Source of the DNA: Candidatus Micrarchaeota archaeon CG1_02_47_40
GTDB taxonomy: Archaea; Micrarchaeota; Micrarchaeia; Anstonellales; CG1-02-47-40
Length of the DNA: 64,000 bases
NCBI GenBank assembly: GCA_001871475.1
Contig: MNVE01000016.1
Span: forward strand, 133,343 to 197,342
Direction of reading: 5' to 3'
Shown: positions 5,184-64,000 of the stretch, piece by piece
Numbering within the stretch: the first letter of the stretch is position 1
Layout: every line of letters starts with the position of its first letter
Program-made: the position numbers and the translations under genes
The notes under the pieces: generated by a model
The model's input: only the letters and a program-made list of their open reading frames with translations
Database searches by the model: none
What the model was told of the DNA's origin: nothing

Positions 5184-5489
5184 TCAGAAATATCCAAGCC
5201 ATTTTTCGTATTCCTTGTGCGTTCCTACGAAATAAACCATTTTTGTTTTCTTCTCCTCATCAATCTGCTTGTCCTGACGGACAAGTCTTGACGCTTGCGC
5301 GTCAATTTCATAGCATAGTTTATATTGCCCTATTTCGGAAACGAAAAACGGAGCACCTTTCTTCAGATGCCTTGCGGGAATCGGCTCGCAGTGCTGGAGT
5401 ATTTTGTTCACGACTCTTTTTTTCATTGCCGTGTCAAGCTTTGAGAAATATGCGTCCCATCCCTCGTGGAATTGGATTTGGTATGCCAT
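5184..5489 (-). CDS. RelE/ParE-family toxin-like protein
   Basis: 101 aa with a C-terminal YKLCYEID...VYFVGTHKEY pattern resembling the RelE/ParE YRxxYxID...HRxxxY core. It lies immediately downstream of an RHH protein and contains an in-frame double-hairpin insertion. Confidence 0.5.
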   Translation of the reverse strand: MAYQIQFHEGWDAYFSKLDTAMKKRVVNKILQHCEPIPARHLKKGAPFFVSEIGQYKLCYEIDAQASRLVRQDKQIDEEKKTKMVYFVGTHKEYEKWLGYF

Positions 5490-5502: not shown

Positions 5503-5784
5503 TCAAAAGGCTTCCGGGTATTTTTTCCTTACTTCATTCAGGGTGAGCGTTCTTTTTCCGCCGCTCTTCAACTCCTCCTGCATCTTTTCCATCTTTGCCA
5601 CTGCAAGCTCATCCAGAATTTCTTCGTTTGATTTTACCACGTGGTAATCTTTCCCAAGCTCAAGGATGCCTGCCCGCACAGCTTCGGCTTTGGTTTTGAA
5701 AAAGCCCGCATCCAGAAGGCGATTTAGTACCTGTTCTACCGAACCCTCAAGATGCACGAATATGCCTGACATTGGAACCACCAT
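5503..5784 (-). CDS. ribbon-helix-helix (CopG-like) antitoxin
   Basis: MSGIFVHLEGSVEQVLNRLLDAG..KTKAEAVRAGILEL is a beta-strand plus two helices typical of RHH. It sits upstream of the RelE-like gene with a 13-nt gap. Confidence 0.5.
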   Translation of the reverse strand: MVVPMSGIFVHLEGSVEQVLNRLLDAGFFKTKAEAVRAGILELGKDYHVVKSNEEILDELAVAKMEKMQEELKSGGKRTLTLNEVRKKYPEAF

Positions 5785-5870: not shown

Positions 5871-6572
5871 ATGGATGGAACAATCATTTTGAGAATAGAA
5901 CATGCGTTGCGTGAAAAGGACGCAATTGAGAGTATAATGCGCATGGCATTCACCTATCCCCAGACGGAGTTTTCCCTCTCGGAAATGGCGCAGGGGGCAA
6001 ATGTATCAAAGAGCACCGCAAGCAGAGCGCTCCAGCAGCTTGCCCTGGCTGGATTGGTAAAAATAACTGATTTAGGGGTTGTTTGGAGGATATCTGCAAA
6101 CAGGCGCTCCCCCGTTTATATAAGGGAGAAGATAGTTTACAACCTCTCGCTGATTTACCGCTCAAACTTGGTTGATTTTCTGGCTGCGCTCTTCAAATCT
6201 CCGCGCGCGCTTGTGCTTTTTGGAAGCTTTAGGAGGGGCGAGGATGTAAAAGATTCGGATATTGACATTGCAGTGGAGCTTGATTCCTTTGGGGAGACGA
6301 AAACTGCGGAACTTTCAAAAATAGAAGGATTGAGTCAAAAGCAGGTGTCGGATATAGTAAATGTTGAAAAAGTGATTGGAAGGAAGTTTGTGCTTACCGT
6401 ATTTGATAGAAAGAATGTGGATGCCAACCTCTTCAACGGCATAGCAAACGGGATAGTGCTGAATGGTTTTCTTGAGGCGGGGAAAGAAGCGGAAAGGGAA
6501 ATGGCGGAAAAAAGGGAAGGAGTGGAAAAAATAACTCCATTCTCACAGTCGGCAGGCAGGGAATATGGATAA
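5871..6572 (+). CDS. wHTH-fused minimal nucleotidyltransferase (MNT antitoxin-like)
   Basis: LVLFGSFRRGEDVKDSDIDIAVEL is the polymerase-beta NTase GS..D.D motif. An N-terminal HTH-like segment (SKSTASRALQQLALAGLV) precedes it. The gene overlaps the following HEPN gene by 8 nt. Confidence 0.75.
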   Translation: MDGTIILRIEHALREKDAIESIMRMAFTYPQTEFSLSEMAQGANVSKSTASRALQQLALAGLVKITDLGVVWRISANRRSPVYIREKIVYNLSLIYRSNLVDFLAALFKSPRALVLFGSFRRGEDVKDSDIDIAVELDSFGETKTAELSKIEGLSQKQVSDIVNVEKVIGRKFVLTVFDRKNVDANLFNGIANGIVLNGFLEAGKEAEREMAEKREGVEKITPFSQSAGREYG

Positions 6573-6975
6573 AAAAAGAATTGAAGAGCTTGAAAATGCA
6601 GGCGAGTTGCGAAGAAGAAGCCCTGACAAGGCACGGATACGTTCCATGCTGGAAGCGGCAAAGAGAACATCGGAGTATGTGTGCCGGCTTGAAATAAACG
6701 AGGAAAGCGCTGCTGTTGTATTCCGTGAGCTTTATGAATGCTTACGGCAGATTGGTGATGCACTGCTTTGGCGTTCTGGATGGGAGCCGCTAAAGCACAC
6801 AGCAAGCATTGAAGCACTCAAAGAGGAAGTAGGGTATGTGGATTATGAAAAGCTGGACAGGTTAAGGATTATTAGAAATAATGCAAACTATAGGGGATAT
6901 TCAGTAAGCGTGCAAAACGCGCTTGAGATAAAGGAGCTTTGGGAGAAATGGGGAAGAAGGATTGCAGAGAGATAG
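6565..6975 (+). CDS. HEPN-domain protein (toxin partner of MNT)
   Basis: 136 aa helical protein with an R...NNANYRGY-like Rx4-6H-type region, placed directly after the NTase gene. Confidence 0.65.
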   Translation: MDKKRIEELENAGELRRRSPDKARIRSMLEAAKRTSEYVCRLEINEESAAVVFRELYECLRQIGDALLWRSGWEPLKHTASIEALKEEVGYVDYEKLDRLRIIRNNANYRGYSVSVQNALEIKELWEKWGRRIAER

Positions 6976-7149: not shown

Positions 7150-10100
7150 GTGGGACTTATGACAAAAAGCATTGAATTGAAGGTCGCAGAAGCCCTCCAG
7201 CAGGATGTTGGAAGAGGTATAGTCAGGATAGACTCTCGCGCACGGGAAGCGCTTGGGGTTTCTACCGGCGATATTGTTGAATTAAAGGGGAAGAGAAGCA
7301 CCGCTGCGATAGTATGGCAGGCGCACCCGCAGGATGAGGGGATGAGCATAGTGCGCATGGACGGGTACCTGCGCCAGAATACCGGAGTCGCTTTACAGGA
7401 CAGGATAATGGTGAAAAAGGCTGAAACCGTTGAAGCGAAAAAAGTGGTGCTTGCGCCAATGCAGCCCATAAAATACTCTCCTGGTTTCGATCAGTTTGTG
7501 CTAAAGAGGTTGATTGGAAGAGCTCTCACAAAAGGGGACATGATATTTGTCGGGGTGTTTGGCACTTCCTTTCCGCTGATTGCGGCGCTTGTGCAGCCCA
7601 GCGGCATGGCAATGATAACGGACAGGACGGAATTGGTGCTAAAGGAAGAGCCGATAAAGAAAACCGGCACCGGCCTGACGCTCTCTTATGAGGATGTGGG
7701 AGGCTTGAAGGAAGAGGTGCGAAAGATAAGGGAGATGGTGGAATTGCCCATGCGCCACCCGGAGCTTTTTGAGAAATTGGGAATAGAGGCGCCAAAGGGA
7801 GTGCTCATATACGGCCCGCCCGGAACGGGAAAAACACTGCTTGCAAAAGCTGTCGCAAGCGAGTCTGAAGCGAATTTTATACACATAGGCGGACCGGAGC
7901 TTGTCAGCAAGTTCGTAGGTGAGAGCGAGGAGAAGCTAAGGCAGCTCTTCAAGGATGCCGAGGAGAACGCGCCCTCAATAATATTCATGGATGAGCTGGA
8001 TGCGATTGCCCCAAAGAGAGAGGAGGTTACGGGTGAAGTGGAAAAGAGGATGGTGAGCCAATTGCTCACTTTAATGGATGGATTGAAAGCGCGCGGGCAG
8101 GTAATAGTTATCGGAGCGACCAACCGCGTGAATTCCATAGACCCGGCGCTGCGCCGCCCGGGACGGTTTGACCGCGAGATAGAGATTGGAGTGCCTGACA
8201 GGAAGAGCAGATTGGAGATTTTACAGATACATACCCGCGGAATGCCCCTTGAGAATGATGTGAATCTTGAGGAGCTTTCCGGAATCACCCACGGCTACAC
8301 CGGCGCTGATATTTCCTCCCTGACAAAGGAGGCGGCAATGAAAACCTTGCGAAGGATACTGCCGCAGATTAATTTGGAGCAGGACACTATACCTCCGGAG
8401 ATACTTGAAAATTTGCGCGTAACAAGAGAAGATTTCTTCAACGCACTGCGCGAAATCCTTCCCTCTGCGCTGCGTGAAGTGTTCCTTGAGAGGCCGAACG
8501 TGCACTGGGGAGACATGGGCGGGATGGAGAAGGTGAAGGAGGAAATGAAGGAGGCGATAGAATTGCCCCTAAAGCGGCCCGAGATTTTCTCGAAGTTTGG
8601 CATCCGCCCGATAAAAGGAATTTTATTAGTTGGCTTGCCTGGCACGGGAAAAACGATGATTGCAAAAGCGGTTGCCACCGAAACAGAAGCGAATTTCATT
8701 TCCATAAAGGGGCCTGAAGTGCTATGCCTTGCGCCGGGCACTCCGATATTCACTGACAATTGCGGACTGCGCGAGATTTCCGAATTTTATGAGAGAATAA
8801 AAGATAAGACAACTGTTGAAAGAGCCACGGATTCGCTGGAAGTAAGAAAACTCAATGAACCGGTATTCACTTTCGGAATAGGAAAGAACGGACAGATTGA
8901 AAAAACGAAAATAGAAAGAATGCATAGAGTATTTGTTCCGAAAAGCTATGAGATTGCGCTCTCAAACGGAACTGCCCTGACCGTTTCTGAAAACCAGCCG
9001 TTTTATGCCTATGCAGACGGAGAAATTAGATGGGTGAAAACATCGGAGCTCAAAGAAGGAAGCTGGATAGCGGTGCCTGCGCAAATTCCCGCGTTTGCGA
9101 AGGAAATGACAATTGCCCCTCCTTCCGACGAGCATCTTAGAATGGTGCAGGAAAATGAGGAATTTGCAGAAATGAGAGTATTCTCTGCAAGGGAAACGGC
9201 TAGACTTCCAAAAAAACTTAGCGAGGATTTGGCTGAATTCTTAGGGTGGTTCGTGGCAGAGGGAAACATCTCAAAGGAAGGAATAAGCATTGCGAACGCA
9301 GATAAAGAGAATAAAGGAAGGATAAAGAAATTGTTTGGACTTTTTGTGCCGGCGGAAAGAATAAGGGAGTATTCGGACAAGACGGTAGTTTATTCTACTC
9401 CGCTTGTGCATTATCTTGAAGGAATATTTGAAATGTTTTTGAGGAGAAAGAAATCGGGGATTATTGGCGTTCCTTCAATAATTTTCAAATCCGACTGTAG
9501 GAGGATTGCGCGCTTCTTAAGGGGAGCTTACCTTGGCGACGGACACCTTGGAAAAACAAAGGTGGAATACGGAACGATGAGCAAAAAACTGGCGCATGGA
9601 ATCACTTATCTGCTTTCAATACTTGGAATAAAATATAGGCGATGGGAAAGAAAAGACAGAATGTGGATGATTACGATATCCGGAAAAAAAGAGATTTCCG
9701 CATTCAAATCAGCAGTGTTCGGAGAAGAAGCTGGCAAAGTAAGAAGATATTACAATGCTCGCTATCACATTCCGGATGTAAGCGCTTTGCTGCGTGAAGC
9801 AAAAAGCGCTCTGAACCTCAAGTATGATAAAGAAATTCCAGAAGGCTTGTTTGAGGGCGTGTTAAGCGGAAGAAAGAGGTGCGGATTGATAAGATTGCAA
9901 AGAATGATGAGTTATTTGGAAAAATATGCAGATGAAAAATTCAGGAAAAGCAGATGCTGCGCCTCGCTGTCTCTTATGTCAAAGGGAACCCTTGCGTGGA
10001 TTAGAGTGGAAAAAAAGACAGCGGGAGGTCAGATGTGGATGTATGATCTTGAAACGGAAAATTCAAGCTTTATCGGAGGAGAGCTTCCGACCGTGCTCCA

Positions 10101-10692
10101 CAACTCAAAATGGGTTGGAGAAAGCGAGAAAGCGGTTAGGGAGATTTTCCGCAAGGCAAGGACTGCCGCTCCCTGCATCATTTTCATAGATGAGATAGAC
10201 GCCGTAGGAAGCTGGAGGGGCGTTGCGGATGATGCAGGAGGCAGGGTGCGCGAGAGCGTCGTGAATACTTTCTTGACTGAAATGGACGGGCTTACCAATC
10301 TGAAAAACGTGGTGGTGATTGCGGCTACAAACAGGCCGGACATACTTGACCCCGGATTGCTTCGCGCAGGCAGGTTTGACAAGATAATAGAGATGACTGT
10401 GCCTGATGAGAAGACGAGGCACGAAATATTCAAGGTGCACACGAAAAAGATGCCCCTTGCAAAGGATGTGGATTTGGAGGAGCTTTCAAAGAAAACCGAG
10501 GAGAATACCGGAGCGGATATAGAAAATATCTGCAGGGAGGCAGGCATGCATGCAATACGCGAAAATCCGGAGGGCGCAAGCGTAGAAATGAAGCACTTCC
10601 TCTCCGCAATGAAGAGCATACGCCCGACAGTAACGAAGGCGCATGTTGAAAGCATGAAGAAGTTCGCAAAGCAGGACGCGATGTTCAGGTAA
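7150..10692 (+). CDS. cdc48: Cdc48/VCP-like AAA+ ATPase interrupted by an intein in the D2 domain
   Basis: N-domain, D1 ([23 protein letters not shown]) and D2 ([15 protein letters not shown] ... IIFIDEIDA) are present. The extein is 721 aa once the 460 aa insertion is removed. Confidence 0.9.
8725..10104 (+). mobile_element. intein with LAGLIDADG-type homing endonuclease inside cdc48 D2
   Basis: The insertion begins with Cys (CLAPGTPIF) right after ISIKGPEVL and ends with VLHN followed by +1 Ser (SKWVGESEK). Internal LGWFVAEGN and [13 protein letters not shown] are LAGLIDADG-like blocks. Confidence 0.8.
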
Positions 10693-10697
10693 ATTTT

Positions 10698-11294
10698 ATG
10701 AAATACGCAACAGCATCATTCATAAGCCTGGAGGAGTTCGTAAACATCGCAGTTTCGGTGGTGGCAATATCGCTTGCACTCACCTTTAACACAGCAGGCG
10801 GGCTTTCCGTAAAGCCGCCTGATTTTGTTTTTTACATGGGAGTGTTTACGCTGACAGTGGGAATCGGATTTGTTCTGCACGAGCTTGCGCACAAATTCAC
10901 CGCAATGCGATATGGCGCATGGGCGCAGTTTAGGGCGTGGCCTGCTGGCTTGCTGCTGATGCTTGGGATGGCGCTGTTTCTCCCAATAATGTTCCTTGCT
11001 CCTGGCGCAGTCTACATTTACTCCCCTTACATAAACAAAAAGCAAAATGGCATAATTTCAGTCGCAGGGCCGCTTACAAACCTTGCGCTTGTGGCGGTGT
11101 TTGGAGTGATATACGCTTTTTCATTTGGAACGGTAAGGGAGATTGCCTCCCTTGGCGCGAGCGTGAACGCTTTCCTTGCATTCTTCAACATGATTCCCAT
11201 CTTTCCTCTTGACGGCTCTAAAGTCTTGGCATGGGATTGGAGGGTGTGGCTGGCAGTAATTGCAGTGGCTTTCCTGCTTTCAGGCGGGTTTTAG
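10698..11294 (+). CDS. site-2-protease-like (M50) membrane zinc metalloprotease
   Basis: Polytopic protein with HELAHK (HExxH) and NMIPIFPLDGSKVL (LDG motif). Confidence 0.7.
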   Translation: MKYATASFISLEEFVNIAVSVVAISLALTFNTAGGLSVKPPDFVFYMGVFTLTVGIGFVLHELAHKFTAMRYGAWAQFRAWPAGLLLMLGMALFLPIMFLAPGAVYIYSPYINKKQNGIISVAGPLTNLALVAVFGVIYAFSFGTVREIASLGASVNAFLAFFNMIPIFPLDGSKVLAWDWRVWLAVIAVAFLLSGGF

Positions 11295-11297
11295 CTT

Positions 11298-11930
11298 ATG
11301 GAAAAATCGGAAGGAGATTTTTCCAGACTTGCCTTAGAGAGCAAGCAGATGGAGGAGTTAAGAGGTGCGGAAGCTGTTTTGAAGGGGAAGAAAGTTGATG
11401 GAGAGAAGGCGCTTTGTAAAATAAGGGGGAAAAAAGGATATAGGAATGCGCTCTTGGATGCTAAGTTGCGGAAAGGAAGAACTAAAAGGGAAGCAAAATT
11501 AATGCAGAAAGCTTCTGAAGCCGGCGTTCCCTGCCCTGCTGTTTTTGGAGTGCGGGAGTTTGAAATTGATTTTTCCTTTATAGAAGGGAGATTGGCAAGC
11601 GAAATGAGGCTGGATGGAAATGCCCTGAAAGAATCTGCCAGACTTCTCTCCCTGCTTCACTCCATAAACATCATTCACGGAGATTATACCCCTGCAAACC
11701 TCATTATTGGAAAGGGAGGCAGGGTAAGCGTAATTGATTTTGGCTTGGGTTTCTTTTCGCATAAATTAGAGGATAAGGCGGTTGACGTATTTACGATGAA
11801 GCAGGCGCTTGAAGGAGGAATGGGGAAGAAATTCGTTGAGGAGTATGAAAAGTTTGGAGAGAAAGGAGTAGTTGAGAGGATGAGAGAGGTGGAGAGCAGA
11901 GCGAGATATCGGGAGAGAAAGGAGAAATGA
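11298..11930 (+). CDS. bud32: Bud32/PRPK-like (KEOPS) atypical Ser/Thr kinase
   Basis: 210 aa with IIHGDYTPANLII and VSVIDFGLG, the catalytic and DFG-like motifs of small RIO/Bud32 kinases. Confidence 0.7.
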   Translation: MEKSEGDFSRLALESKQMEELRGAEAVLKGKKVDGEKALCKIRGKKGYRNALLDAKLRKGRTKREAKLMQKASEAGVPCPAVFGVREFEIDFSFIEGRLASEMRLDGNALKESARLLSLLHSINIIHGDYTPANLIIGKGGRVSVIDFGLGFFSHKLEDKAVDVFTMKQALEGGMGKKFVEEYEKFGEKGVVERMREVESRARYRERKEK

Positions 11931-15959: not shown

Positions 15960-18285
15960 GATGAAAACGATTGAAATTAAACGGAGAGGAAAGTTCTCAA
16001 GGGGGGTTGAAACCCTCAAGGGAAACACCGTGCGAGCAGGCAGGATGAAATATGTATCTACTCTGCTCTCACGGTGTTGGAGTGGAACCCCCCTTATGGG
16101 AATGAAAACCGTTGAGAATACACGAGAAATAAAAAGAACTCAGATTTCAATTTCAGGAATGCACTGCGCAAGCTGTGCGTCGCTTATTTCAAAGGCTCTG
16201 CAGAAAACGCAGGGAGTGAAAAGCGTGAATGTGAATTACGCGGCAGCGAAAGCAAGCGTTGAATTTGACGAGAAAAAAACAGATGAGAAAAAAATAATTG
16301 AGGTAATAAAGTCAAGGGGATATTCTGCTTTGGTGGGAGTTGACCACGAGCATGAGAGCCTGGTAAGGGAAAGGGAGATAATTGAATTGAGAAATTTGCT
16401 CGTATTCGCCGCGGCGCTCTCCTTGCCGGCATTTCTGCTTGGAATGTTCTTAATGGAATTCCCATACCGAAGCCTTCTTCTCTTCTTGCTTGCTACCCCT
16501 GTACAGTTTATTGCCGGAAGGGGGTTTTACCTTGGGGCGTTAAGCGCCCTGAAAAACCGCACAGCAAGCATGGATACGCTGATTGCAATAGGCACCAGCG
16601 CCGCTTACTTTTACAGCATCGCCTTTCTCTTCGGGCTTGTAGAGGAGCAATACTTTGAGACGGCAGCAGTACTTATTACCTTAGTTATTTTAGGAAAATA
16701 TCTAGAGGCGCGCGCCAAAGGCAGGACAAGCCAAGCGATACGAAAACTGATGGGGCTTGCGCCAAAACATGCGATAGTGATACGCGCAGGCAGGGAGATG
16801 AAGGTTCCCATTTCCGAAGTAAGGGTAGGTGACATCGTCTTAGTAAAGCCCGGGGAGAAAATACCTGTGGACGGCATCGTTCTTGAGGGAAAGTCGGCAG
16901 TAGATGAGAGTATGATTACCGGAGAGAGCGTGCCGGCTGACAAGTCAAAGGGGATGAAAGTTGTAGGGGCTTCCATAAACAAAAACGGGGTTTTACGCAT
17001 AAAGGCAATGAAAATAGGAAAAGACACTGTGCTTTCGCAGATAGTGAAACTGGTTGAGGAGGCGCAAGGAAGCAGGGCTGATATACAGCGGTTTGCGGAT
17101 GCGATAAGCGCGGTTTTTGTGCCGGTGGTTGTCGCCATAGCCATCCTTTCCCTGGCAGTCTGGATTATGCTTGGGCAGACCTTCTCCTTTGCCCTTCTGA
17201 CAGCAGTTTCCGTTCTTGTGATAGCCTGCCCCTGCGCACTGGGGCTTGCAACTCCGACTGCGATAATGGTAGGCACCGGGATTGGCGCGCAGAGGGGAAT
17301 TCTCATAAAAAACGCGGAAACGCTTGAGAACATGCACAAGATAAACGCGCTCATATTTGACAAGACAGGAACGATAACCGAGGGGAAGATGAATGTGACC
17401 GATTTTGTCCCTCTTGAAGGCGCGCATGATGCAACTGCGCTTTCTCTTGCGTATTCAGTAGAGGCAAACTCCGAGCACCCGCTTGCGGATGCGATTGTGA
17501 ATTACGCAAAGGGTGAAGGGGCAAAAAAACAGAAAACTTCCTCCTTTAGGGCGGTGCCCGGGCACGGGGTTGAGGCAATGGTGGGAAAAGAGCGCGTGTA
17601 TATAGGAAAGCCAAAAGGCACTCACGCAAAAGGAAAGATTGTTTCCCTCATCGCACGGCTTGAAGGGGAGGGAAAAACCGTGATGGTGCTTGAGAAAAAC
17701 GGAAAGCCGTCAGCCGTAATCGGAGTTGCGGATGTAATAAGAAAAACAAGCAGAGCGGCGGTTGCCGAACTTCAAAAGCTTGGGATATCCTCCTGGATGA
17801 TTACTGGGGATAATAAGAGGACTGCGGCTGCGATTGCACGCCTTGCAGGCATAAAAAACGTCTTTGCGCAGGTCCTCCCAAAAGACAAGGCGGAATATGT
17901 GAAGAAGCTTCAGAAAAAAGGGATGAAGGTTGCAATGGTTGGGGACGGCATAAATGATGCGCCGGCGCTTGCGCAGGCAGACATAGGAATTGCAATGGGA
18001 GGCGGAACCGACGTGGCGATTGAAACCGGCTCCGTAATCATTATGAGAAATGACCCGCTGGACGTTCCGCGCGCAATAAAGCTGGGAAGGGCGACAATAA
18101 ACAAGATAAGGCAGAATATGTTCTGGGCGCTTGTATATAATGTTGTCGGCATACCAATAGCTGCTGGTGTGCTTTATCCTTCCTTTGGGATACTGCTCTC
18201 TCCCATTATTGCGGGAGGCGCGATGGCGCTCTCAAGCGTTTCGGTGGTGGGAAACTCGCTGCTTCTTGGAAGGGAGAAACTGTAG
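15949..18285 (+). CDS. copA: copper-translocating P1B-type ATPase
   Basis: [18 protein letters not shown] ([11 protein letters not shown]), DKTGT, HP (SEHPLA), GDGINDAP. The true start is probably an internal Met near 16090. Confidence 0.9.
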
Positions 18286-41425: not shown

Positions 41426-42190
41426 TTATATTTTGCCTTTTGGCAGGCGCGAATCCAAAAATGGGAAGACCTCTTCCCATGCGGGTTTGTTTTTTGTCAG
41501 CATATCAAGCGAATTCCAACTTTTCGCCTGCTGATTGATTTTTTTGCGAATATCGCCCCAGTCTGGAATTTCTTTGCATAATGCCATTTTCTGCCTGACG
41601 ATTTCAGGCTCCAAATTTGCGCCTTTTTGCAGAAGAAAGTGCAAGTCATAAACATCCCGCACCTGATTCCGCTGCCATATTGCACGGATTTTTTCTGCTG
41701 CGATTTCTTCCAATTGCATTATGGGCAGAACATAGGAAAGCATATCGGAATAAATCGGCTTTATAGCCAGTGCCTGCGCTGGCATCAGCAAATCCTTTCT
41801 TAATGAAAGGTCAAAGCGCACGGAGCATTTTGAGCGGCTGCTGCCGTCAAAGAGCACTCCTTCTATTAAGAATCTGCCCGATGCTCCGTCTCCAAACGGA
41901 TTGGGCGCCCTTGCAAGCTCGCAACGGTATCCCTGACTTTCCAGCCATTCGGCAGCTTCGTCAAAAACTTTCAGCCGGTGTTCGTTTTCCACGCGCTCGC
42001 AGAAATCAAGGTCCTCGGAAAACCGTTGCAGCCCGTATGCCTTCTGCAGAGCCGTGCCTCCCTTGAAAACAAGCGAAGTTGTTTTTGATGCGATGAAGAG
42101 AAGCAGGAGATGCTGGAAATAATCCTTCTCCTGCTGATTAAGATTGAAGCCTGTGCGCAGTTTGTATCCCTCAAGCTCTTTTCTGTCCAT
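41426..42190 (-). CDS. AbiEii/AbiGii-family nucleotidyltransferase toxin (module 1)
   Basis: LVFKGGTALQKAYGLQRFSEDLDF hallmark. Paralogous to 46704..47450. Confidence 0.75.
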   Translation of the reverse strand: MDRKELEGYKLRTGFNLNQQEKDYFQHLLLLFIASKTTSLVFKGGTALQKAYGLQRFSEDLDFCERVENEHRLKVFDEAAEWLESQGYRCELARAPNPFGDGASGRFLIEGVLFDGSSRSKCSVRFDLSLRKDLLMPAQALAIKPIYSDMLSYVLPIMQLEEIAAEKIRAIWQRNQVRDVYDLHFLLQKGANLEPEIVRQKMALCKEIPDWGDIRKKINQQAKSWNSLDMLTKNKPAWEEVFPFLDSRLPKGKI

Positions 42191-42824
42191 TAAACCGCCT
42201 CCTAAAGCGAATGAATCTTCTCAATGCGCTTTTATTTTGGTAAAGCCTGACAAAATTCTCAACTGCCCTTAAATTAAACCTGCTCGCTCTCCTGAAATAG
42301 GCTGCCGCCGATTCTGTTTCCTCATCACCAGCCAAATCAGGTCTTGCTATGCAGTCTGCAATCGCTTTCTCCCTTCCTGCAACGAAATATTTTTTACTGC
42401 CTGCTTTTGCGGGATGGAACCCTCCGAATGCCCGCGCAGGAGTGCGATGAAAGGTTATTTCATAATTTGCAAATTTTACAGCTCTTGCGGATGCGGCGGC
42501 GGCAACTTGCACCTGCACGGGTATCTGCGTGCCCGCCCCATGAAGGATGAGCGCGCTCAAAAAAGAGATATATGAAGGTCTGATAATCGCAGTTGCGACA
42601 GCTTCTGCCGATTCGCCCGCAAGCGCGTAAAGCCCGTTTTTTATTCTGCAAAGAACCCCGGAAGAGCAAAGGCGGCTTGCAAGCACATACGGCGAATTCG
42701 TGCCTGCAATAAGCCCAAGCATTTTTGTTGAGTATACTGGATTGTCAAGCTCGCGGAGCTTCTCCACCAATTCAAATCTATTCATGGATGTGCTTTGCAG
42801 GGAAAAGGATATAAATATATGCAT
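42171..42824 (-). CDS. AbiEi-family antitoxin/transcriptional regulator (module 1)
   Basis: Lies upstream of AbiEii and overlaps it by 20 nt. Shares HP(S/T)Y(I/V)SFLSA...HG similarity with 45784..46506. Confidence 0.65.
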   Translation of the reverse strand: MHIFISFSLQSTSMNRFELVEKLRELDNPVYSTKMLGLIAGTNSPYVLASRLCSSGVLCRIKNGLYALAGESAEAVATAIIRPSYISFLSALILHGAGTQIPVQVQVAAAASARAVKFANYEITFHRTPARAFGGFHPAKAGSKKYFVAGREKAIADCIARPDLAGDEETESAAAYFRRASRFNLRAVENFVRLYQNKSALRRFIRFRRRFNGQKRA

Positions 42825-43936: not shown

Positions 43937-45124
43937 TTGATTTTTATGGCAGTCCAAATAGATATAGACAGGAAAACCTGCGAAATTACCTGCGCTCACC
44001 CTGAAAGCGTTTCTTCACTTGTGAATGGGCATTATGGAATTATGAAGAAAGGGGTGATTTACCTCTATCCCGAAGAAGCGCTCTACTTGGCGGATATCCG
44101 GAATGCAAAATGCTACGACAAGGCAGGAAATGTTTTTCACTTCAATGATTTGGCTTCCCTTTTCCCGCAAAAAAAGCTCATGGCAAGGTATTTTACTTTC
44201 AAGGATTGGAGGGACAGGGGATTGATTGCCCGCCCGGCGCATGAATTGCCTGCAGGGGTGAATTTCGGCAGAAACCCCGTAAAAAAATACCCCAAAGGAA
44301 AATTCCAGATGGACCGCTATTCCCTGCACGGGGCGTTTTACGAGGATGATTTGGTATGCATAATAGATGATTCGGCTGTCGCAAAGGATTTGTATGAGCG
44401 CTACTGGCTTGGGCAGTTTGCCTCTTACAAAGCCGAGCAGAGGGGCAATATTGGCAAATTGGATATGTATGAAACGCTGTTTATGGTGAGAAACTGCCGC
44501 CTCTCAATAAGGGGGGCGGATGAGAAGAAATTGATGAGCGAGGCGAAGAAGAGGAGGAAGGACTTCCCAGCCCTTTACGAGGTGTATGAGGACTGGAGGA
44601 TTAGGGGGTTTGTGCTGAAGACGGGTTTTAAGTTTGGCACGCACTTTCGCTTGTACTTTCCTGGGGCTTCCCCCACGAGGAATACGGATGAGTGGATACA
44701 TTCAAAGCATGTAATACATGTGTTCCCGCGCAATAGCAGGCTGCTCATTTCGGAATGGGCGCGTGCAATACGCGTTGCGCATTCGGTGAAGAAAACATTC
44801 ATACTTGCAATTCCGGGAAAAGAGGAGAAGTGGGAGGGGAAATTGGAAGTTGATTTGGATTTTGCGCTTTACCACCGCAAAGGCGGGGATATAGAAAACC
44901 CCAAGGATGGAAAGCCCAAATACCTTATGCTTTCTCTCTCGGAAGAGGAGGAGATTGGGGGAGCGGAGCTTGCAAAGGCGATTGTGAAATGCAAGGAGGT
45001 CGGGCTTGAGCTTCTGCTTGCGATTGCGGATAGGGAAACTTCGGTTACTTATTATTTGATAAAAAGGATTGAACTGCCGGGAAGCAATTATGAGTATTAT
45101 GAGATAGAATGGGTGCAGCCGTAA
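43937..45124 (+). CDS. endA: tRNA-splicing endonuclease (duplicated alpha2-type)
   Basis: C-terminal catalytic unit GFKFGTHFRLY...H...K plus a degenerate N-terminal repeat. Confidence 0.7.
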   Translation: MIFMAVQIDIDRKTCEITCAHPESVSSLVNGHYGIMKKGVIYLYPEEALYLADIRNAKCYDKAGNVFHFNDLASLFPQKKLMARYFTFKDWRDRGLIARPAHELPAGVNFGRNPVKKYPKGKFQMDRYSLHGAFYEDDLVCIIDDSAVAKDLYERYWLGQFASYKAEQRGNIGKLDMYETLFMVRNCRLSIRGADEKKLMSEAKKRRKDFPALYEVYEDWRIRGFVLKTGFKFGTHFRLYFPGASPTRNTDEWIHSKHVIHVFPRNSRLLISEWARAIRVAHSVKKTFILAIPGKEEKWEGKLEVDLDFALYHRKGGDIENPKDGKPKYLMLSLSEEEEIGGAELAKAIVKCKEVGLELLLAIADRETSVTYYLIKRIELPGSNYEYYEIEWVQP

Positions 45125-45420
45125 GGAACCTTTGACGCTTGTGCGTCAAAATTTGAACGCTCCCGCGTTCAACCCTACGGTTTGAGTGTGCTTCGCACAC
45201 ACGCTGTCCTTCGGACACCTATTGACAACTCACGTTGCCAACTGCCCAACAGCTACGCTGTTGGTTTCTCAAACACCGTGCGAGCAGAGTAGATGCAATT
45301 CTCATCCCGACTGCTCTCACGGTGTTCACCCGTTTGAAGACGAAGTCTTCAAATTTTGCCCGATTGACGCTGAAGGCGTCAAGACTTGTCCGAAGGACAA
45401 GCAGAAGGGCAAATGTTTCC
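45125..45420. repeat. array of ~10 short GC-rich hairpins (5-8 bp stems, 3-5 nt loops), many with TTGAC...GTCAA arms
   Basis: Examples: ttgacgcttgtgcgtcaa, ttgaacgctcccgcgttcaa, gtgtgcttcgcacac, caacagctacgctgttg, ttgaagacgaagtcttcaa, ttgacgctgaaggcgtcaa, cttgtccgaaggacaag. Confidence 0.75.
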
Positions 45421-45439
45421 CTTTTTATTAGCCCGCGAT

Positions 45440-45780
45440 TTTCTATTGCATTTTGTCAAAAAAAGTTTCAAAATGCACTACATTTTGGCGAAAATATTTT
45501 CAAAATGCAAATTTTAAGGATTGACCGCCAGTGCCTGTTTTCTTGCAGAACGATTTTTGGCGAATATTGTTCCCGCGCAGAACAATTTCGTGAGGTGTGT
45601 TTGTTCGGAGTTTGAGCTGAAATTCACTCTTTTTGGTCGGATTTCCGAACAGAAATATGCGTTTTTGGCTCTCTCCTTATTTACGAGGATATTTTTCTTT
45701 GCTTTTTTGTTCGAAGTTTGAGCTGGAATTGAGTGTTTTTGGTCGGATTTCCGAACAAAACCGAGGATGAATTCTTCTTT
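45440..45780. repeat. complex direct-repeat block A (copy of block at 47566..47800)
   Basis: Box ttggcgaaaa..tttcaaaatgc is followed by two tandem ~75-bp units gttcggagtttgagctg(g)aatt...ttttgg.cggatttccgaac...gtttttggctctctccttatttacgagg. Each unit has a ttcgga/tccgaa inverted pair. Confidence 0.7.
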
Positions 45781-45783
45781 TAA

Positions 45784-46506
45784 ATGAGCGTTGAAGTTAT
45801 CAAAAATGATAACTTTAAATACTTTTTGGAAGAATATATTATCATGAATGATACGGAATGGCTCAAGAAACATCCCACAATAAGGCTGGCGGATATAGAG
45901 AGAAGATGCAAAAGCCATAACTACGCCAAGCTCTTTGCGCACAGAATGCAAAAAAAAGGGATTTTGCATAAAGCAGCAAGAGGAATTTATTCCGCTTCTG
46001 AAGAAGTATTTGCAGTCGCATCAAACATTCATTATCCGAGCTATGTTTCTTTTTTGTCCGCTTCCTATTTATACGGCTTTACCGAAACGATACCCCGCAT
46101 AGTTTCCATTGCAGCGGCAAAAAAATACAGCAAAATAGAGTTCAAAGGGTATACGATAGAATTCGTTCGGATGAAGGAGCTCTGGGGTTATAAAAACGAG
46201 AACGGGGTGTTTTTGGCAGAGCCTGAAAAACTGCTGATAGACGCATTCCTAAAGCCAAAAAGCATGGGGAATTTTGAGGAAATCGAAAGGCTCTTTGGAG
46301 GCTCTTTGGAGATAAATGCTGAAAAACTCAAAACCTACCTAAAAAAAACCAATTCAGACAGAGTATACAGGTGCGTCGGGTATATGCTGGAAAAGCACAG
46401 AAAAATAGACATATCGCGCCTTATGCGCATTGATAGGAACTATTATGAGCTGAATCCGTTTGAAAGCGGCGCGGGTATAAACAGAAAATGGAGGCTTAAG
46501 GTATGA
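45784..46506 (+). CDS. AbiEi-family antitoxin/regulator (module 2)
   Basis: HYPSYVSFLSASYLYGFTE...LID similarity to 42171..42824. The likely start is an internal Met near 45844. Confidence 0.65.
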   Translation: MSVEVIKNDNFKYFLEEYIIMNDTEWLKKHPTIRLADIERRCKSHNYAKLFAHRMQKKGILHKAARGIYSASEEVFAVASNIHYPSYVSFLSASYLYGFTETIPRIVSIAAAKKYSKIEFKGYTIEFVRMKELWGYKNENGVFLAEPEKLLIDAFLKPKSMGNFEEIERLFGGSLEINAEKLKTYLKKTNSDRVYRCVGYMLEKHRKIDISRLMRIDRNYYELNPFESGAGINRKWRLKV

Positions 46507-46520
46507 AAAATCGCATTGCG

Positions 46521-46700
46521 ATTGGAGACGATGGATATGGTTGTATTGTTTAGTCTCCAAAACATGACGCTGCAGTGTCATGCAGATTTTTCAGTTGACG
46601 CCAGGGGCATCAAGACTTGCTCAACAGAGCAAGCAGAAATTGACCGGAGGTTTGACGGCGAAGCCGTCAAATTTTGACACCTCCGGTGTCAAAGGTCAAT
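46521..46700. repeat. second hairpin array between AbiEi-2 and AbiEii-2
   Basis: ttggagac-N24-gtctccaa, catgacgctgcagtgtcatg, ttgacgccaggggcatcaa, cttgctcaacagagcaag, ttgacggcgaagccgtcaa nested within ccggaggt...acctccgg, ttgacacctccggtgtcaa. Confidence 0.7.
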
Positions 46701-46703
46701 AAG

Positions 46704-47450
46704 ATGAACACAAAAGAGCTTGGGGAGTATGCCCGTCTGCGGGGCTTGAACTTAGGGCAGGCTGAAAAGGATTATTACCAAAATATACTCCTTTTTCTGC
46801 TCTACGGCAGTGTCTCAAAAGAACTTGTCTTCAAGGGAGGAACAGCCCTCTCAAAATGTTATGGATTAAACAGATTTTCAGAGGATCTTGATTTTACAGT
46901 TCTGGAGGAAAGGGATTTCATTATTATTCTGGAAAAGGGGCTTGGGGAATTTGGCATTCTTCACATGGTAAAGGAGGAGAAAACGGCTGCCCAAAGCAAA
47001 AAATACAGGCTTAAGGTGCAGGGCCCTCTTTACAGAGGGCTTGAGAGAACGCTCTGCTCAATAACGCTTGATTTCAGCTTTAGGGAGAAGGTGCTTTCCC
47101 CTCCGCTTATCAAAACCATCGGGCATCATATGGATATAATACCGGTTTTTGACGTTTATGTTATGAGCCAGAACGAGATATTGGCGGAGAAGATAAGGGC
47201 GCTTCTTGCAAGAAAATCCGCAAGGGATTTGTATGACATTGTTTTTTTATTAAGAAACGGGGCGGTTGTTGATGAGAAAATGATAAGGCAGAAGCTTGCG
47301 CTGTGCGGAATGGAATTTGACAGAAAAACATTCATTTCAAGATGCGGTTTGCTTGAGGGGATATGGGAAAGCGAGCTTAAATCGCTTGTGAAGAATGTCC
47401 CTTCCTTTAAGGAGTATGTTGGAATGGTGAAGGGGAAGGTTGAGAGATAG
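46704..47450 (+). CDS. AbiEii-family nucleotidyltransferase toxin (module 2)
   Basis: MNTKELGEYARLRGLNLGQAEKDYYQ...LVFKGGTALSKCYGLNRFSEDLDF aligns along its length with 41426..42190 (MDRKELEGYKLRTGFNLNQQEKDYFQ...). The ORF-track TTG start at 46674 is rejected. Confidence 0.75.
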   Translation: MNTKELGEYARLRGLNLGQAEKDYYQNILLFLLYGSVSKELVFKGGTALSKCYGLNRFSEDLDFTVLEERDFIIILEKGLGEFGILHMVKEEKTAAQSKKYRLKVQGPLYRGLERTLCSITLDFSFREKVLSPPLIKTIGHHMDIIPVFDVYVMSQNEILAEKIRALLARKSARDLYDIVFLLRNGAVVDEKMIRQKLALCGMEFDRKTFISRCGLLEGIWESELKSLVKNVPSFKEYVGMVKGKVER

Positions 47451-47565
47451 AGAAGAGGGGGATTGAGGGAGAGAGGCGGGTAAGGGGTATCGTTGGGACA
47501 GTAGTGAAGGAGGGAATGAAAGAATAGAGATTGATGAGAAGAATTGGCGCAGGGAGATAAGGATT

Positions 47566-47800
47566 TGGCGAAAAAAGTTTCAAAATGCGCATTTTTTCAG
47601 GATTTGATCGGAGTTTGAGCCAATTTTAAGTGTTTTTGGGGGGGATTTCCGAACGAAAATAGGCGTTTTTGGCTCTCTCCTTATTTACGAGGGGAGTTTT
47701 CTTTGCTTTTTTGTTCGGAGTTTGAGCTGGAATTAGAGGGGATTTTGGACGGAAGTCCGAACGAATTATGCTGGAGGGGCTTATTTTGCCGAATTTTAGG
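47566..47800. repeat. complex direct-repeat block B (copy of block at 45440..45780)
   Basis: tttggcgaaaaaagtttcaaaatgcgc, then two units containing tcggagtttgagc...gatttccgaacgaaaataggcgtttttggctctctccttatttacgagg and ttttctttgcttttttgttcggagtttgagctggaatt. Confidence 0.7.
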
Positions 47801-63057: not shown

Positions 63058-63494
63058 AGGAATTGCACTTTGAGTCTTTTTTCTATTTCACTGAAGAATT
63101 TTTCCGCAGTTTCTATCGCGCTTTTTGCCTCATATTCTGAAATTGAGCCTGCCTTCTCATAAACTGAAATGTGCCGCTTCTTCCTCATCTGCTCGAAAAG
63201 CCTTGTTTCGTTTGGAAGTTTTGCGCCTAATTTTACCTCTGCGTATTCCACTGCCGTTTTGTGCGGCTCATCCCCTTTTGCGGCGTAACCCTCCGCAAAC
63301 ATGAGCGCCCTTGTTGATTGCAGCATTGCATTGTATGCGACTGAAAAAGCCCAGTCGCAGTCCTCTGAAAGCAGCTTCTTGGCGGTTTTTATGTCCCTTT
63401 TGGCAGCAGTTAGGCATTCCTGTGCCTGCTGTAAATCTGGCTTTATCTGCCTTGCCTTGTTCTCACGAAGCAAATCGCTTAAATTCATCCTCAT
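63054..63494 (-). CDS. HEPN-domain protein (module 2)
   Basis: 146 aa helical protein. Overlaps the upstream NTase by 32 nt and Pelota by 4 nt. Confidence 0.6.
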   Translation of the reverse strand: MRMNLSDLLRENKARQIKPDLQQAQECLTAAKRDIKTAKKLLSEDCDWAFSVAYNAMLQSTRALMFAEGYAAKGDEPHKTAVEYAEVKLGAKLPNETRLFEQMRKKRHISVYEKAGSISEYEAKSAIETAEKFFSEIEKRLKVQFL

Positions 63495-64000
63495 CGCCTA
63501 TCAGCATTATTTTTTTATCTGCAAGCACCCTGCGCAAAAAACCCTCCTTCTTTCTCCGGAGGAATTCCGCCGATGGGTAGATGGAGTAGTTTATTTCCCT
63601 AGCTGTTTTTCTTTCTATCTTTTGCACGAGGCGGCTTATTTCATCCATTTTCGCATCGCCTATAATCATTAAATCTATGTCGCTTTTCGCCCCCTCGTCG
63701 CCTCTTGCTGCCGAGCCGTATATAAACGCAAAATGCGCACCGCCGATTTTTGCAAACTCATCCACAAGCTGGCTTCCAAGCCCTTCCGTTTTGAGAATTA
63801 TGCGTCTTAATTCCTCATAAAGCGGGTTCTGCCTGTTTGCGGAGTAATAAATGAGGTTGCCTTCCCTTCTGGTTACTAAAAAGCCTCCTTCCTGGAGATT
63901 TTTCAGTTCTGCCCAAACCTCATTAGTCTGCGCAGAGAGCGCCCTTGCAAGAGAGCGCGCGTAAAAACTGCCGTGCGGATTCGTAAAGAAAACAGATAGG
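63463..64000 (-). CDS. wHTH-fused minimal nucleotidyltransferase (module 2), 5'-truncated by window edge
   Basis: HFAFIYGSAARGDEGAKSDIDLMI NTase motif. The reading frame continues without a stop to nt 64000 and encodes an HTH-like segment (LVTRREGNLIYYSANRQNPLYEEL). Confidence 0.65.
   Translation of the reverse strand, partial: LSVFFTNPHGSFYARSLARALSAQTNEVWAELKNLQEGGFLVTRREGNLIYYSANRQNPLYEELRRIILKTEGLGSQLVDEFAKIGGAHFAFIYGSAARGDEGAKSDIDLMIIGDAKMDEISRLVQKIERKTAREINYSIYPSAEFLRRKKEGFLRRVLADKKIMLIGDEDEFKRFAS

Follow-up and report, generated by a model that had tools for sequence, protein, structure and literature searches.

A RelE/HigB-like toxin gene of Candidatus Micrarchaeota archaeon CG1_02_47_40, an ultrasmall archaeon, contains, in frame, a 42-nt unit made of two small perfect hairpins in tandem (unit A, 5265..5306 of the window, by which we mean the whole 64,000-nucleotide stretch of DNA analysed here). 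The best reading of unit A is that it belongs to a family of miniature palindromic repeats that is specific to the species and low in copy number, and comparison with homologous sequences indicates that the element entered the toxin gene and that the repeat family was not born there. We further propose, with a probability of roughly 0.55, that by analogy with known bacterial repeats the unit is a REP/RPE-like miniature palindromic element, spreading via a mechanism that would act on folded single strands.

Read along the minus strand from 5306 to 5265, unit A is A TTGACGC-gcaa-GCGTCAA GAC TTGTCC-gtca-GGACAA GCAG. An earlier note on this DNA had matched the reverse complement of 5265-5305 to two further sites, 45364-45404 and 46595-46636, and both matches held up on closer comparison. 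Unit B (45363-45404), A TTGACGC-tgaag-GCGTCAA GAC TTGTCC-gaa-GGACAA GCAG, is identical to unit A at 33/33 non-loop positions, the two loops alone being different. In unit C (46594-46636), G TTGACGCC-agg-GGCATCAA GAC TTGCTC-aaca-GAGCAA GCAG, both stems are held via compensatory two-sided changes. The same note had seen the first hairpin of the 45125 array mirrored in the toxin gene, and indeed 5288-5305 (plus strand) is identical to 45132-45149 at 17 of 18 positions. The hairpin-1 pattern TTGACGCN{3,7}GCGTCAA was observed 3 times against 0.00 expected, and GTCAAGACTTGTCC twice against 0.27 expected. A covariance model of the unit scored copies A, B and C at 58-63 bits (E ~1e-15 to 1e-16), and in a six-copy alignment 97.4% of cells were paired and 7/13 pairs compensatory, a result equalled by none of 500 shuffles. 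Between A, B and a copy on another contig (L015, see below), stems are identical and loops unrelated. As judged from these alignments, the stems are preserved by selection or by a copying mechanism, and the loops vary freely.

The family has a compact build. Single hairpins measure 17-21 nt, with stems of 6-9 bp and A/T at the outer positions, and a linker of 3 nt joins the two, so that copies of the unit are 41-43 nt long; in the main subfamily the linker is GAC and a GCAG tail follows, both unpaired and conserved. About 8 or more double units occur in ~110 kb, mostly in intergenic DNA. Imperfect stem pairs comprise four C.A on the sense strand (equal to G.U on the antisense strand) versus two G.T on the sense strand. 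All copies with a clear transcriptional context (7/7) run in the sense direction of the local genes (P ~0.008 if orientation is random).

The host gene and its neighbour are as follows.

5184..5489, minus strand: RelE/HigB-like toxin gene, host of unit A; 101 aa against 85-90 aa in homologues, with 16/16 invariant family residues kept
5503..5784, minus strand: small ORF, presumed antitoxin; 89-93 aa; ends 13 nt upstream of the toxin gene; weak RelB-like match (18 bits, cut-off 50)

The in-frame position of unit A within 5184..5489(-), already proposed in the earlier note, was confirmed, and the peptide it encodes is IDAQASRLVRQDKQ. That the product is RelE-like, as also suggested there, is supported by an AlphaFold model (pLDDT 73.8) in which Foldseek recognizes the RelE fold, the top PDB matches, each with a probability of 1.0, being the RelE proteins from T. 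thermophilus, M. tuberculosis, P. horikoshii and M. jannaschii. Against PF09907 (HigB_toxin, cut-off 27) the protein scores 18.0 bits with the insert and 22.4 bits without it, and several of its homologues have precomputed PF09907 or PF05016 matches. The small ORF just upstream is likely the cognate antitoxin. An identical 101-aa protein is annotated as hypothetical in the Candidatus Micrarchaeota MAGs CG11_big_fil_rev_8_21_14 and CG1_02_47_40. Since the identical toxin gene is present on at least 20 contigs of independent assemblies, and every fetched locus is 99.98-100% identical to the window, an assembly artefact at this locus can be ruled out. The predicted fold of the toxin mRNA retains both hairpins of unit A (about -21 kcal/mol). 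The toxin probably still folds with its 14 extra residues, and the mRNA hairpins may damp its translation.

Homologues of the toxin reveal the site without the unit. The 14 residues of unit A are absent in 14/14 database homologues, and in 79 of 80 homologous loci taken from GTDB genomes the match spans 240-255 nt. A codon-level reading of the site was made for 12 of these 80 loci. The closest relatives sharing the codon pattern have the empty site '...TAT ACC ATT GAC GAG AAA AAG AAA...', and the window has the filled site 'TAT GAA ATT GAC [gcg...cag att gat] GAG GAG AAG AAA'; the empty allele of the window site would read ...TATGAAATTGATGAG.... The ancestral insertion site, ...GAA|ATTGAY GAG..., resembles the first six bases at the unit's own 5' end, and the addition of 42 nt at such a unit-like ATTGAY site therefore leaves the 5-nt ATTGA at both edges of unit A (5302-5306 and 5260-5264). 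In the AlphaFold model, the insert falls within a stretch of pLDDT<50 (residues 64-78), at the turn between the strands 56-63 and 82-90. Unit A adds 14 residues, a surface loop, at a beta-hairpin turn and leaves the conserved residues and the reading frame intact.

The peptide had been described beforehand as a loop-like insertion, which agrees with its place at a disordered turn between beta-strands. Of the two origins considered at that time, insertion of an element in frame has stood, whereas derivation of the family from the toxin gene has not, because the gene in its ancestral form was without the segment; conservation of the peptide in unrelated homologues, which would have spoken for coincidental similarity, was looked for and none of the homologues keeps the 14 residues. 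Among 15 contigs from other assemblies, all 99.98-100% identical, we found neither an empty-site allele nor a presence/absence polymorphism, so that the mobility of the unit is a conclusion from comparison only.

The window holds further units and hairpin arrays, all on the plus strand.

11298..11348, plus strand: unit D, a diverged copy found as a covariance-model match, TGGAAAAATC-ggaagga-GATTTTTCCA GAC TTGCCT-taga-GAGCAA GCAG
16002..16094, plus strand: long hairpin (16023-16078) nested in GGGGGGTT/AACCCCCC; a 77% identical copy lies at 45271-45326 in the array below
45119..45420, plus strand: array of ~10 hairpins, from the stop codon of the tRNA-splicing endonuclease gene to a T-run
45355..45413, plus strand: unit B (45363-45404) in the loop of the outer hairpin TTTGCCC/GGGCAAA
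46507..46703, plus strand: 197-nt cluster of hairpin modules between AbiEi and AbiEii, including unit C (46594-46636)

With these, the "third copy" announced in the earlier note is real, and its scope had been underestimated: there is a fourth copy in the window, a second in-frame case, nesting of units in other hairpins, and analogues in other Micrarchaeota. Unit D leaves hardly any of the gap that runs from the preceding gene, whose stop codon is at 11292-11294, to Bud32. In gene calls it appears as an N-terminal extension of Bud32 by 17 aa, with the annotated start codon falling within hairpin 1 of the unit; Bud32 profiles begin at about residue 18-23, and translation probably starts at the ATG at 11349. 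Nesting recurs in both arrays, with a 42-nt double hairpin (45131-45172) set in the stem CCGTAAGG/CCCTACGG (45119-45180) and a 43-nt double hairpin (46651-46693) set in ATTGACC/GGTCAAT (46639-46700). The folding z-scores of the two arrays are -9.9 and -6.2. The AbiEi/AbiEii spacer of the window, 197 nt long, consists wholly of hairpin modules, compared to a spacer of 3 nt in another Micrarchaeote (L078). Contigs of the same organism from other assemblies begin in or at the edge of hairpin arrays (window positions 16051, 45243 and 45420), and the hairpin repeats evidently break short-read assemblies. Separately, the AbiEi/AbiEii pair is flanked by direct repeats (45452-45760 and 47564-47734), within which a 55-nt sequence containing the 7-bp inverted repeat GTTCGGA...TCCGAAC occurs at 45600, 45706 and 47603; these direct repeats could be AbiEi operators or cassette borders.

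A metagenome scan yielded two further genuine copies, at L009:1329-1370 and at L015:443-483(-). The other 18 of its 20 matches lack hairpin 1 and were dismissed as chance. The contig L015 comes from the same MAGs as the window, and L009, from a sister sample, probably does as well. Cutting exactly the conserved 41-42 nt out of the surroundings restores a simple hairpin in each of three cases: without the 42-nt unit B, a perfect TTTGCCC-GAA-GGGCAAA is left, without the L009 unit a perfect TTTGACC-GAA-GGTCAAA, and without the L015 unit a perfect GCCGCACGA-TTT-TCGTGCGGC. As these deletions leave no duplicated flank, insertion proceeded without target-site duplication. A, B, L009 and L015 all have the same ends, although their flanks are unrelated. 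At the sequence level, the module behaves as a discrete unit with fixed ends that has been inserted into ORFs, intergenic gaps and the loops of other hairpins. Searches for the unit in GTDB representative genome contigs, a set without this organism's genome, gave 0 matches, and those in viral contigs gave chance matches only.

Two genes on these additional contigs extend the range of sites.

L015:2415-2624 (= L113:10001-10195), plus strand: gene for a 69-aa HicB-like small protein from the same MAGs, HicB-like by alignment, with a weak Pfam DUF7387 match
L009:4878-5102, plus strand: probable tRNA-Arg(UCU) gene, unannotated, with two introns

The HicB-like gene carries an in-frame 42-nt double hairpin, CCGCaCC-gaa-GGcGCGG AGC AGTGTCC-cgca-GGACACT, encoding RTEGAEQCPAGHSI and flanked by a 3-nt TCC repeat. 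An exhaustive phmmer search showed its 14 residues to be absent in 9/9 homologues, and the profile alignment crosses the junction after removal of the insert. Long multi-domain phmmer matches to this query covered only residues ~7-45, in and around the insert, and were taken as spurious; a word-based homologue search with the same protein returned only itself. In the tRNA gene, one intron of 31 nt lies in the anticodon stem and has a clean HBh' motif, and the other, of ~120 nt, lies in the T-loop and contains four hairpins, one of them a member of the repeat family, CTTGACGC-ttc-GCGTCAAG. This gene was missed by ARAGORN, whose output for the window, L009 and L015 contained no tRNA, and by Rfam (E up to 1 on the region). 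A scan of the window for tRNA-piece motifs gave nothing convincing.

In a hairpin census of ~1.06 Mb from 80 other DPANN loci, the TTGAC sequence family was absent; the double-hairpin architecture nonetheless recurs there. The two clearest cases come from other Micrarchaeota.

L098:2752-3057, plus strand: homologue of the toxin gene, whose corresponding loop region holds two perfect 8-bp hairpins (48 nt together, unrelated to unit A)
L078:7660-7736 and 9556-9632, plus strand: two identical 77-nt elements, each an outer stem with two hairpins, flanking an AbiEi_2/AbiEii pair

Sequence comparison marks the 48-nt double hairpin of the toxin homologue as an independent insert; it has an in-frame TGA, and the frame downstream is intact. 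The AbiEi_2/AbiEii pair looks like a cassette bounded by hairpin repeats. More double or triple hairpins occur at the loci L046, L034 and L097. In the last of these, from another archaeal MAG, a double hairpin (7484-7527, plus strand) sits in the C-terminal tail of a 297-aa ORF, whose sequence suggests, as a guess, an exosome RNase PH-like protein, and may represent a further in-frame insertion. Of about nine unit sites, four lie in toxin-antitoxin modules (HigB-like, HicB-like, AbiE and the L078 AbiE), which most likely reflects the insertion tolerance of such genes.

To our knowledge, miniature palindromic inserts lying in frame within genes are known in bacteria, hardly described in archaea and least of all in reduced DPANN genomes. 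Bacterial REPs and RPEs have documented intragenic in-frame insertions, and CGTC-type REPs have no dedicated transposase (PMC3733652, PMC10969869). RPEs and intragenic REPs resemble the unit in being small, palindromic, dispersed in one genome and without a transposase of their own, in lying often in frame within ORFs, with an extra peptide as the result at a position that tolerates it (here in the toxin and the HicB-like protein), and in having stems of 6-9 bp with outer A/T, loops of 3-5 nt and a frequent position in clusters or downstream of genes (PMC10969869; PMC3733652). The differences are equally plain. RPEs measure ~100-150 nt compared to 42 nt for the unit, whose host is an archaeon (DPANN); RPEs and REPs form a single hairpin or a head-to-head dimer, whereas the unit consists of two different hairpins in tandem, bears no GTAG tag, is nested in the triloops of other hairpins and is low in copy number. 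The definition of a REP as a short palindrome of 20-40 nt, multicopy and mostly extragenic, does describe the unit's hairpins. An assignment to REPs by tag was rejected for GTAG, which is missing, and looks doubtful for CGTC, which stands inside the hairpin-1 stem (GCGTCAA) and is not terminal; also rejected was one to the RPE sequence families, with elements of ~100-150 bp against units of 41-43 nt in an archaeal host.

REP/REPIN-RAYT systems and IS200/IS605-derived mini-elements are likewise defined by hairpins, strand-biased and free of target-site duplication, with the folded single strand as likely substrate (PMC3116915). The two similar hairpins of the unit (TTGNC...GNCAA) could correspond to left-end and right-end hairpins. 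Unlike in those elements, no Y1 (HUH) transposase gene was seen in the window and its flanks, where the genes show no transposase, RAYT (Y1) or integrase domain, and no conserved target tetra- or pentanucleotide is evident. The comparison also takes in IS608/ISDra2 and the haloarchaeal PATEs; IS608 needs a guide and a spacing to the cleavage site, for which the hairpins of the unit, abutting its ends, leave no room. MITEs share with the unit that they are short, non-autonomous, multicopy and occasionally intragenic, and differ in being typically several-fold longer; we rejected this identity because the unit has no terminal inverted repeats (its ends are ATTGAC... and ...GCAG, and its hairpins are independent) and no target-site duplication. 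An integron attC site was excluded as well. Such sites have RYYYAAC...GTTRRRY core sites, an imperfect hairpin with extrahelical bases, a length of 57-141 nt and an integron integrase nearby, whereas the unit has perfect stems, a TTGAC start and GTCAA end, 42 nt and no integrase domain in the window. Cyanobacterial SDRs are reportedly repeats of <50 nt that lie between genes, within genes and nested in each other; they belong to other organisms and have other sequences.

In the reading that we prefer, a REP/RPE-like element would spread by copy and paste through a putative enzyme reading the folded single strand. Recognition would involve the two hairpins together with the conserved unpaired GAC and GCAG, and only in tolerant places would copies survive: toxin-antitoxin genes that can be dispensed with, surface loops, spacers, the loops of hairpins and perhaps introns of tRNAs. 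The sense-only orientation suggests either selection acting on the RNA or an insertion step that is specific to one strand. Counting against a selfish element is the low copy number, about 8 units in ~110 kb, and random insertion of a mobile element does not predict the strict sense orientation (7/7). The ATTGA repeat at unit A can be read equally well as microhomology, and this is the starting point of the main rival, a template switch during replication or break repair that copies ~42 nt from another hairpin locus and then switches back, with no dedicated enzyme. In its favour, ATTGA flanks unit A and the homologues' ATT GAC GAG matches the unit's first 6 nt, many hairpins starting with TTGAC could supply homology, a donor resembling the L015 copy (GCAGATT...) gives a return microhomology of 3 nt, the HicB insert has its 3-nt TCC repeat, and no transposase was seen in the genes of the window and flanks. 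Template switching predicts ragged boundaries, however, and although it accounts for the repeat at unit A it does not account for the constant ends elsewhere: A, B, L009 and L015 end alike in unrelated flanks, and GAA triloops enclose B and L009 neatly, with microhomology of <=1 nt. It also gives the unpaired GAC and GCAG no role. We regard it as unlikely, if still a serious contender.

The conserved unpaired nucleotides fit a functional RNA just as well as a mobile element, and it is conceivable, though somewhat doubtful even in comparison with template switching, that the unit is an RNA module (a protein-binding, processing or stability signal) tuning toxin-antitoxin and other operons, with the toxin copy kept for expression control. 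Every informative copy is sense to local genes, the stems are compensatory and both GAC and GCAG conserved, the arrays have folding z-scores of -9.9 and -6.2, and four of some nine sites fall in toxin-antitoxin modules. Yet no Rfam family matched at the gathering threshold in the window, and none of relevance matched even at E up to 10 (45000-46800); the sequences are species-specific; the contexts are mixed (ORF loop, N-terminal extension, 3' end, tRNA intron and, in L009, a divergent spacer that is possibly untranscribed); and the sense-strand mismatches, four C.A against two G.T, do not clearly mark the sense RNA as the fold under selection. Far less probable is that the 42 nt are a BHB intron, cut from the toxin mRNA by the three-unit splicing endonuclease of the window so as to restore an 87-aa protein. 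The window does encode a tRNA-intron endonuclease as a single ORF of 392-395 aa (43937..45124), and three-unit enzymes of this kind are reported to have broad substrate specificity in Micrarchaeota (PMC3239211). In addition, the probable tRNA of L009 is interrupted by multiple introns, including one packed with family hairpins; the insert ends allow an AAUU/GAUU helix to be drawn, with bulges GA^C and GA^U; and the L098 insert has an in-frame TGA, yet the frame downstream is intact. A purpose-written scan, which recovered intron 1 of the L009 tRNA as a clean HBh' in a control, found no BHB motif with flanking helix at the boundaries of either the toxin or the L098 insert. Moreover, the drawn 4-bp helix is compatible only with an open hairpin 1, yet both hairpins persist in the predicted fold, and the inserts are multiples of 3 nt, two of them without stop codons, neither of which splicing needs. 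That the similarity between the copies is coincidental, or that the repeat family was born from the toxin gene, has a next to negligible probability given the 3 observed versus 0.00 expected hairpins and the model E of ~1e-16 in the one case, and the absence of the segment in homologues in the other.

At 42 nt, the unit is among the smallest elements with demonstrable discrete insertion, which is supported by "empty sites" of three sorts, namely those in protein homologues, in the triloop hairpins restored by deletion and at the normally tight AbiEi/AbiEii junction. It offers a concrete way towards the enzyme that would move such elements, illustrates the birth of new peptide loops in proteins, and bears on the build-up of structured DNA in the tRNA introns of Micrarchaeota. 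For annotation, the effects are false N-terminal extensions (Bud32), longer ORFs, hidden tRNA genes and broken assemblies. A bolder extension of the REP/RPE-like reading, put forward here as a speculation with the odds well against it, is that double hairpins constitute a new type of DPANN mobile element that targets the exposed loops of folded single strands. Inserts in tRNA genes and mRNAs would then be tolerated as the broad-specificity splicing endonuclease or other RNA processing removes or neutralizes them, they would provide raw material for the multiple non-canonical tRNA introns of Micrarchaeota, and the size of ~42 nt would be set by the putative enzyme. If true, this would link the modules to the origin of these unusual introns.

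Apart from the repeats, the window is rich in toxin-antitoxin-like pairs. These include a second AbiEii/AbiEi pair (41426-42824, minus strand), a nucleotidyltransferase gene (5871-6572) followed by a small ORF without Pfam match (together 5871-6975, plus strand), and a nucleotidyltransferase/HEPN pair at the right end of the window (~63060-64000, minus strand; Pfam matches taken from L119). Precomputed Pfam matches (window 7150-10692, plus strand; L113:1210-4545) further place a LAGLIDADG (intein-type) domain in the CDC48 gene, and intein-splicing and LAGLIDADG domains in the gene for the V-ATPase A subunit.
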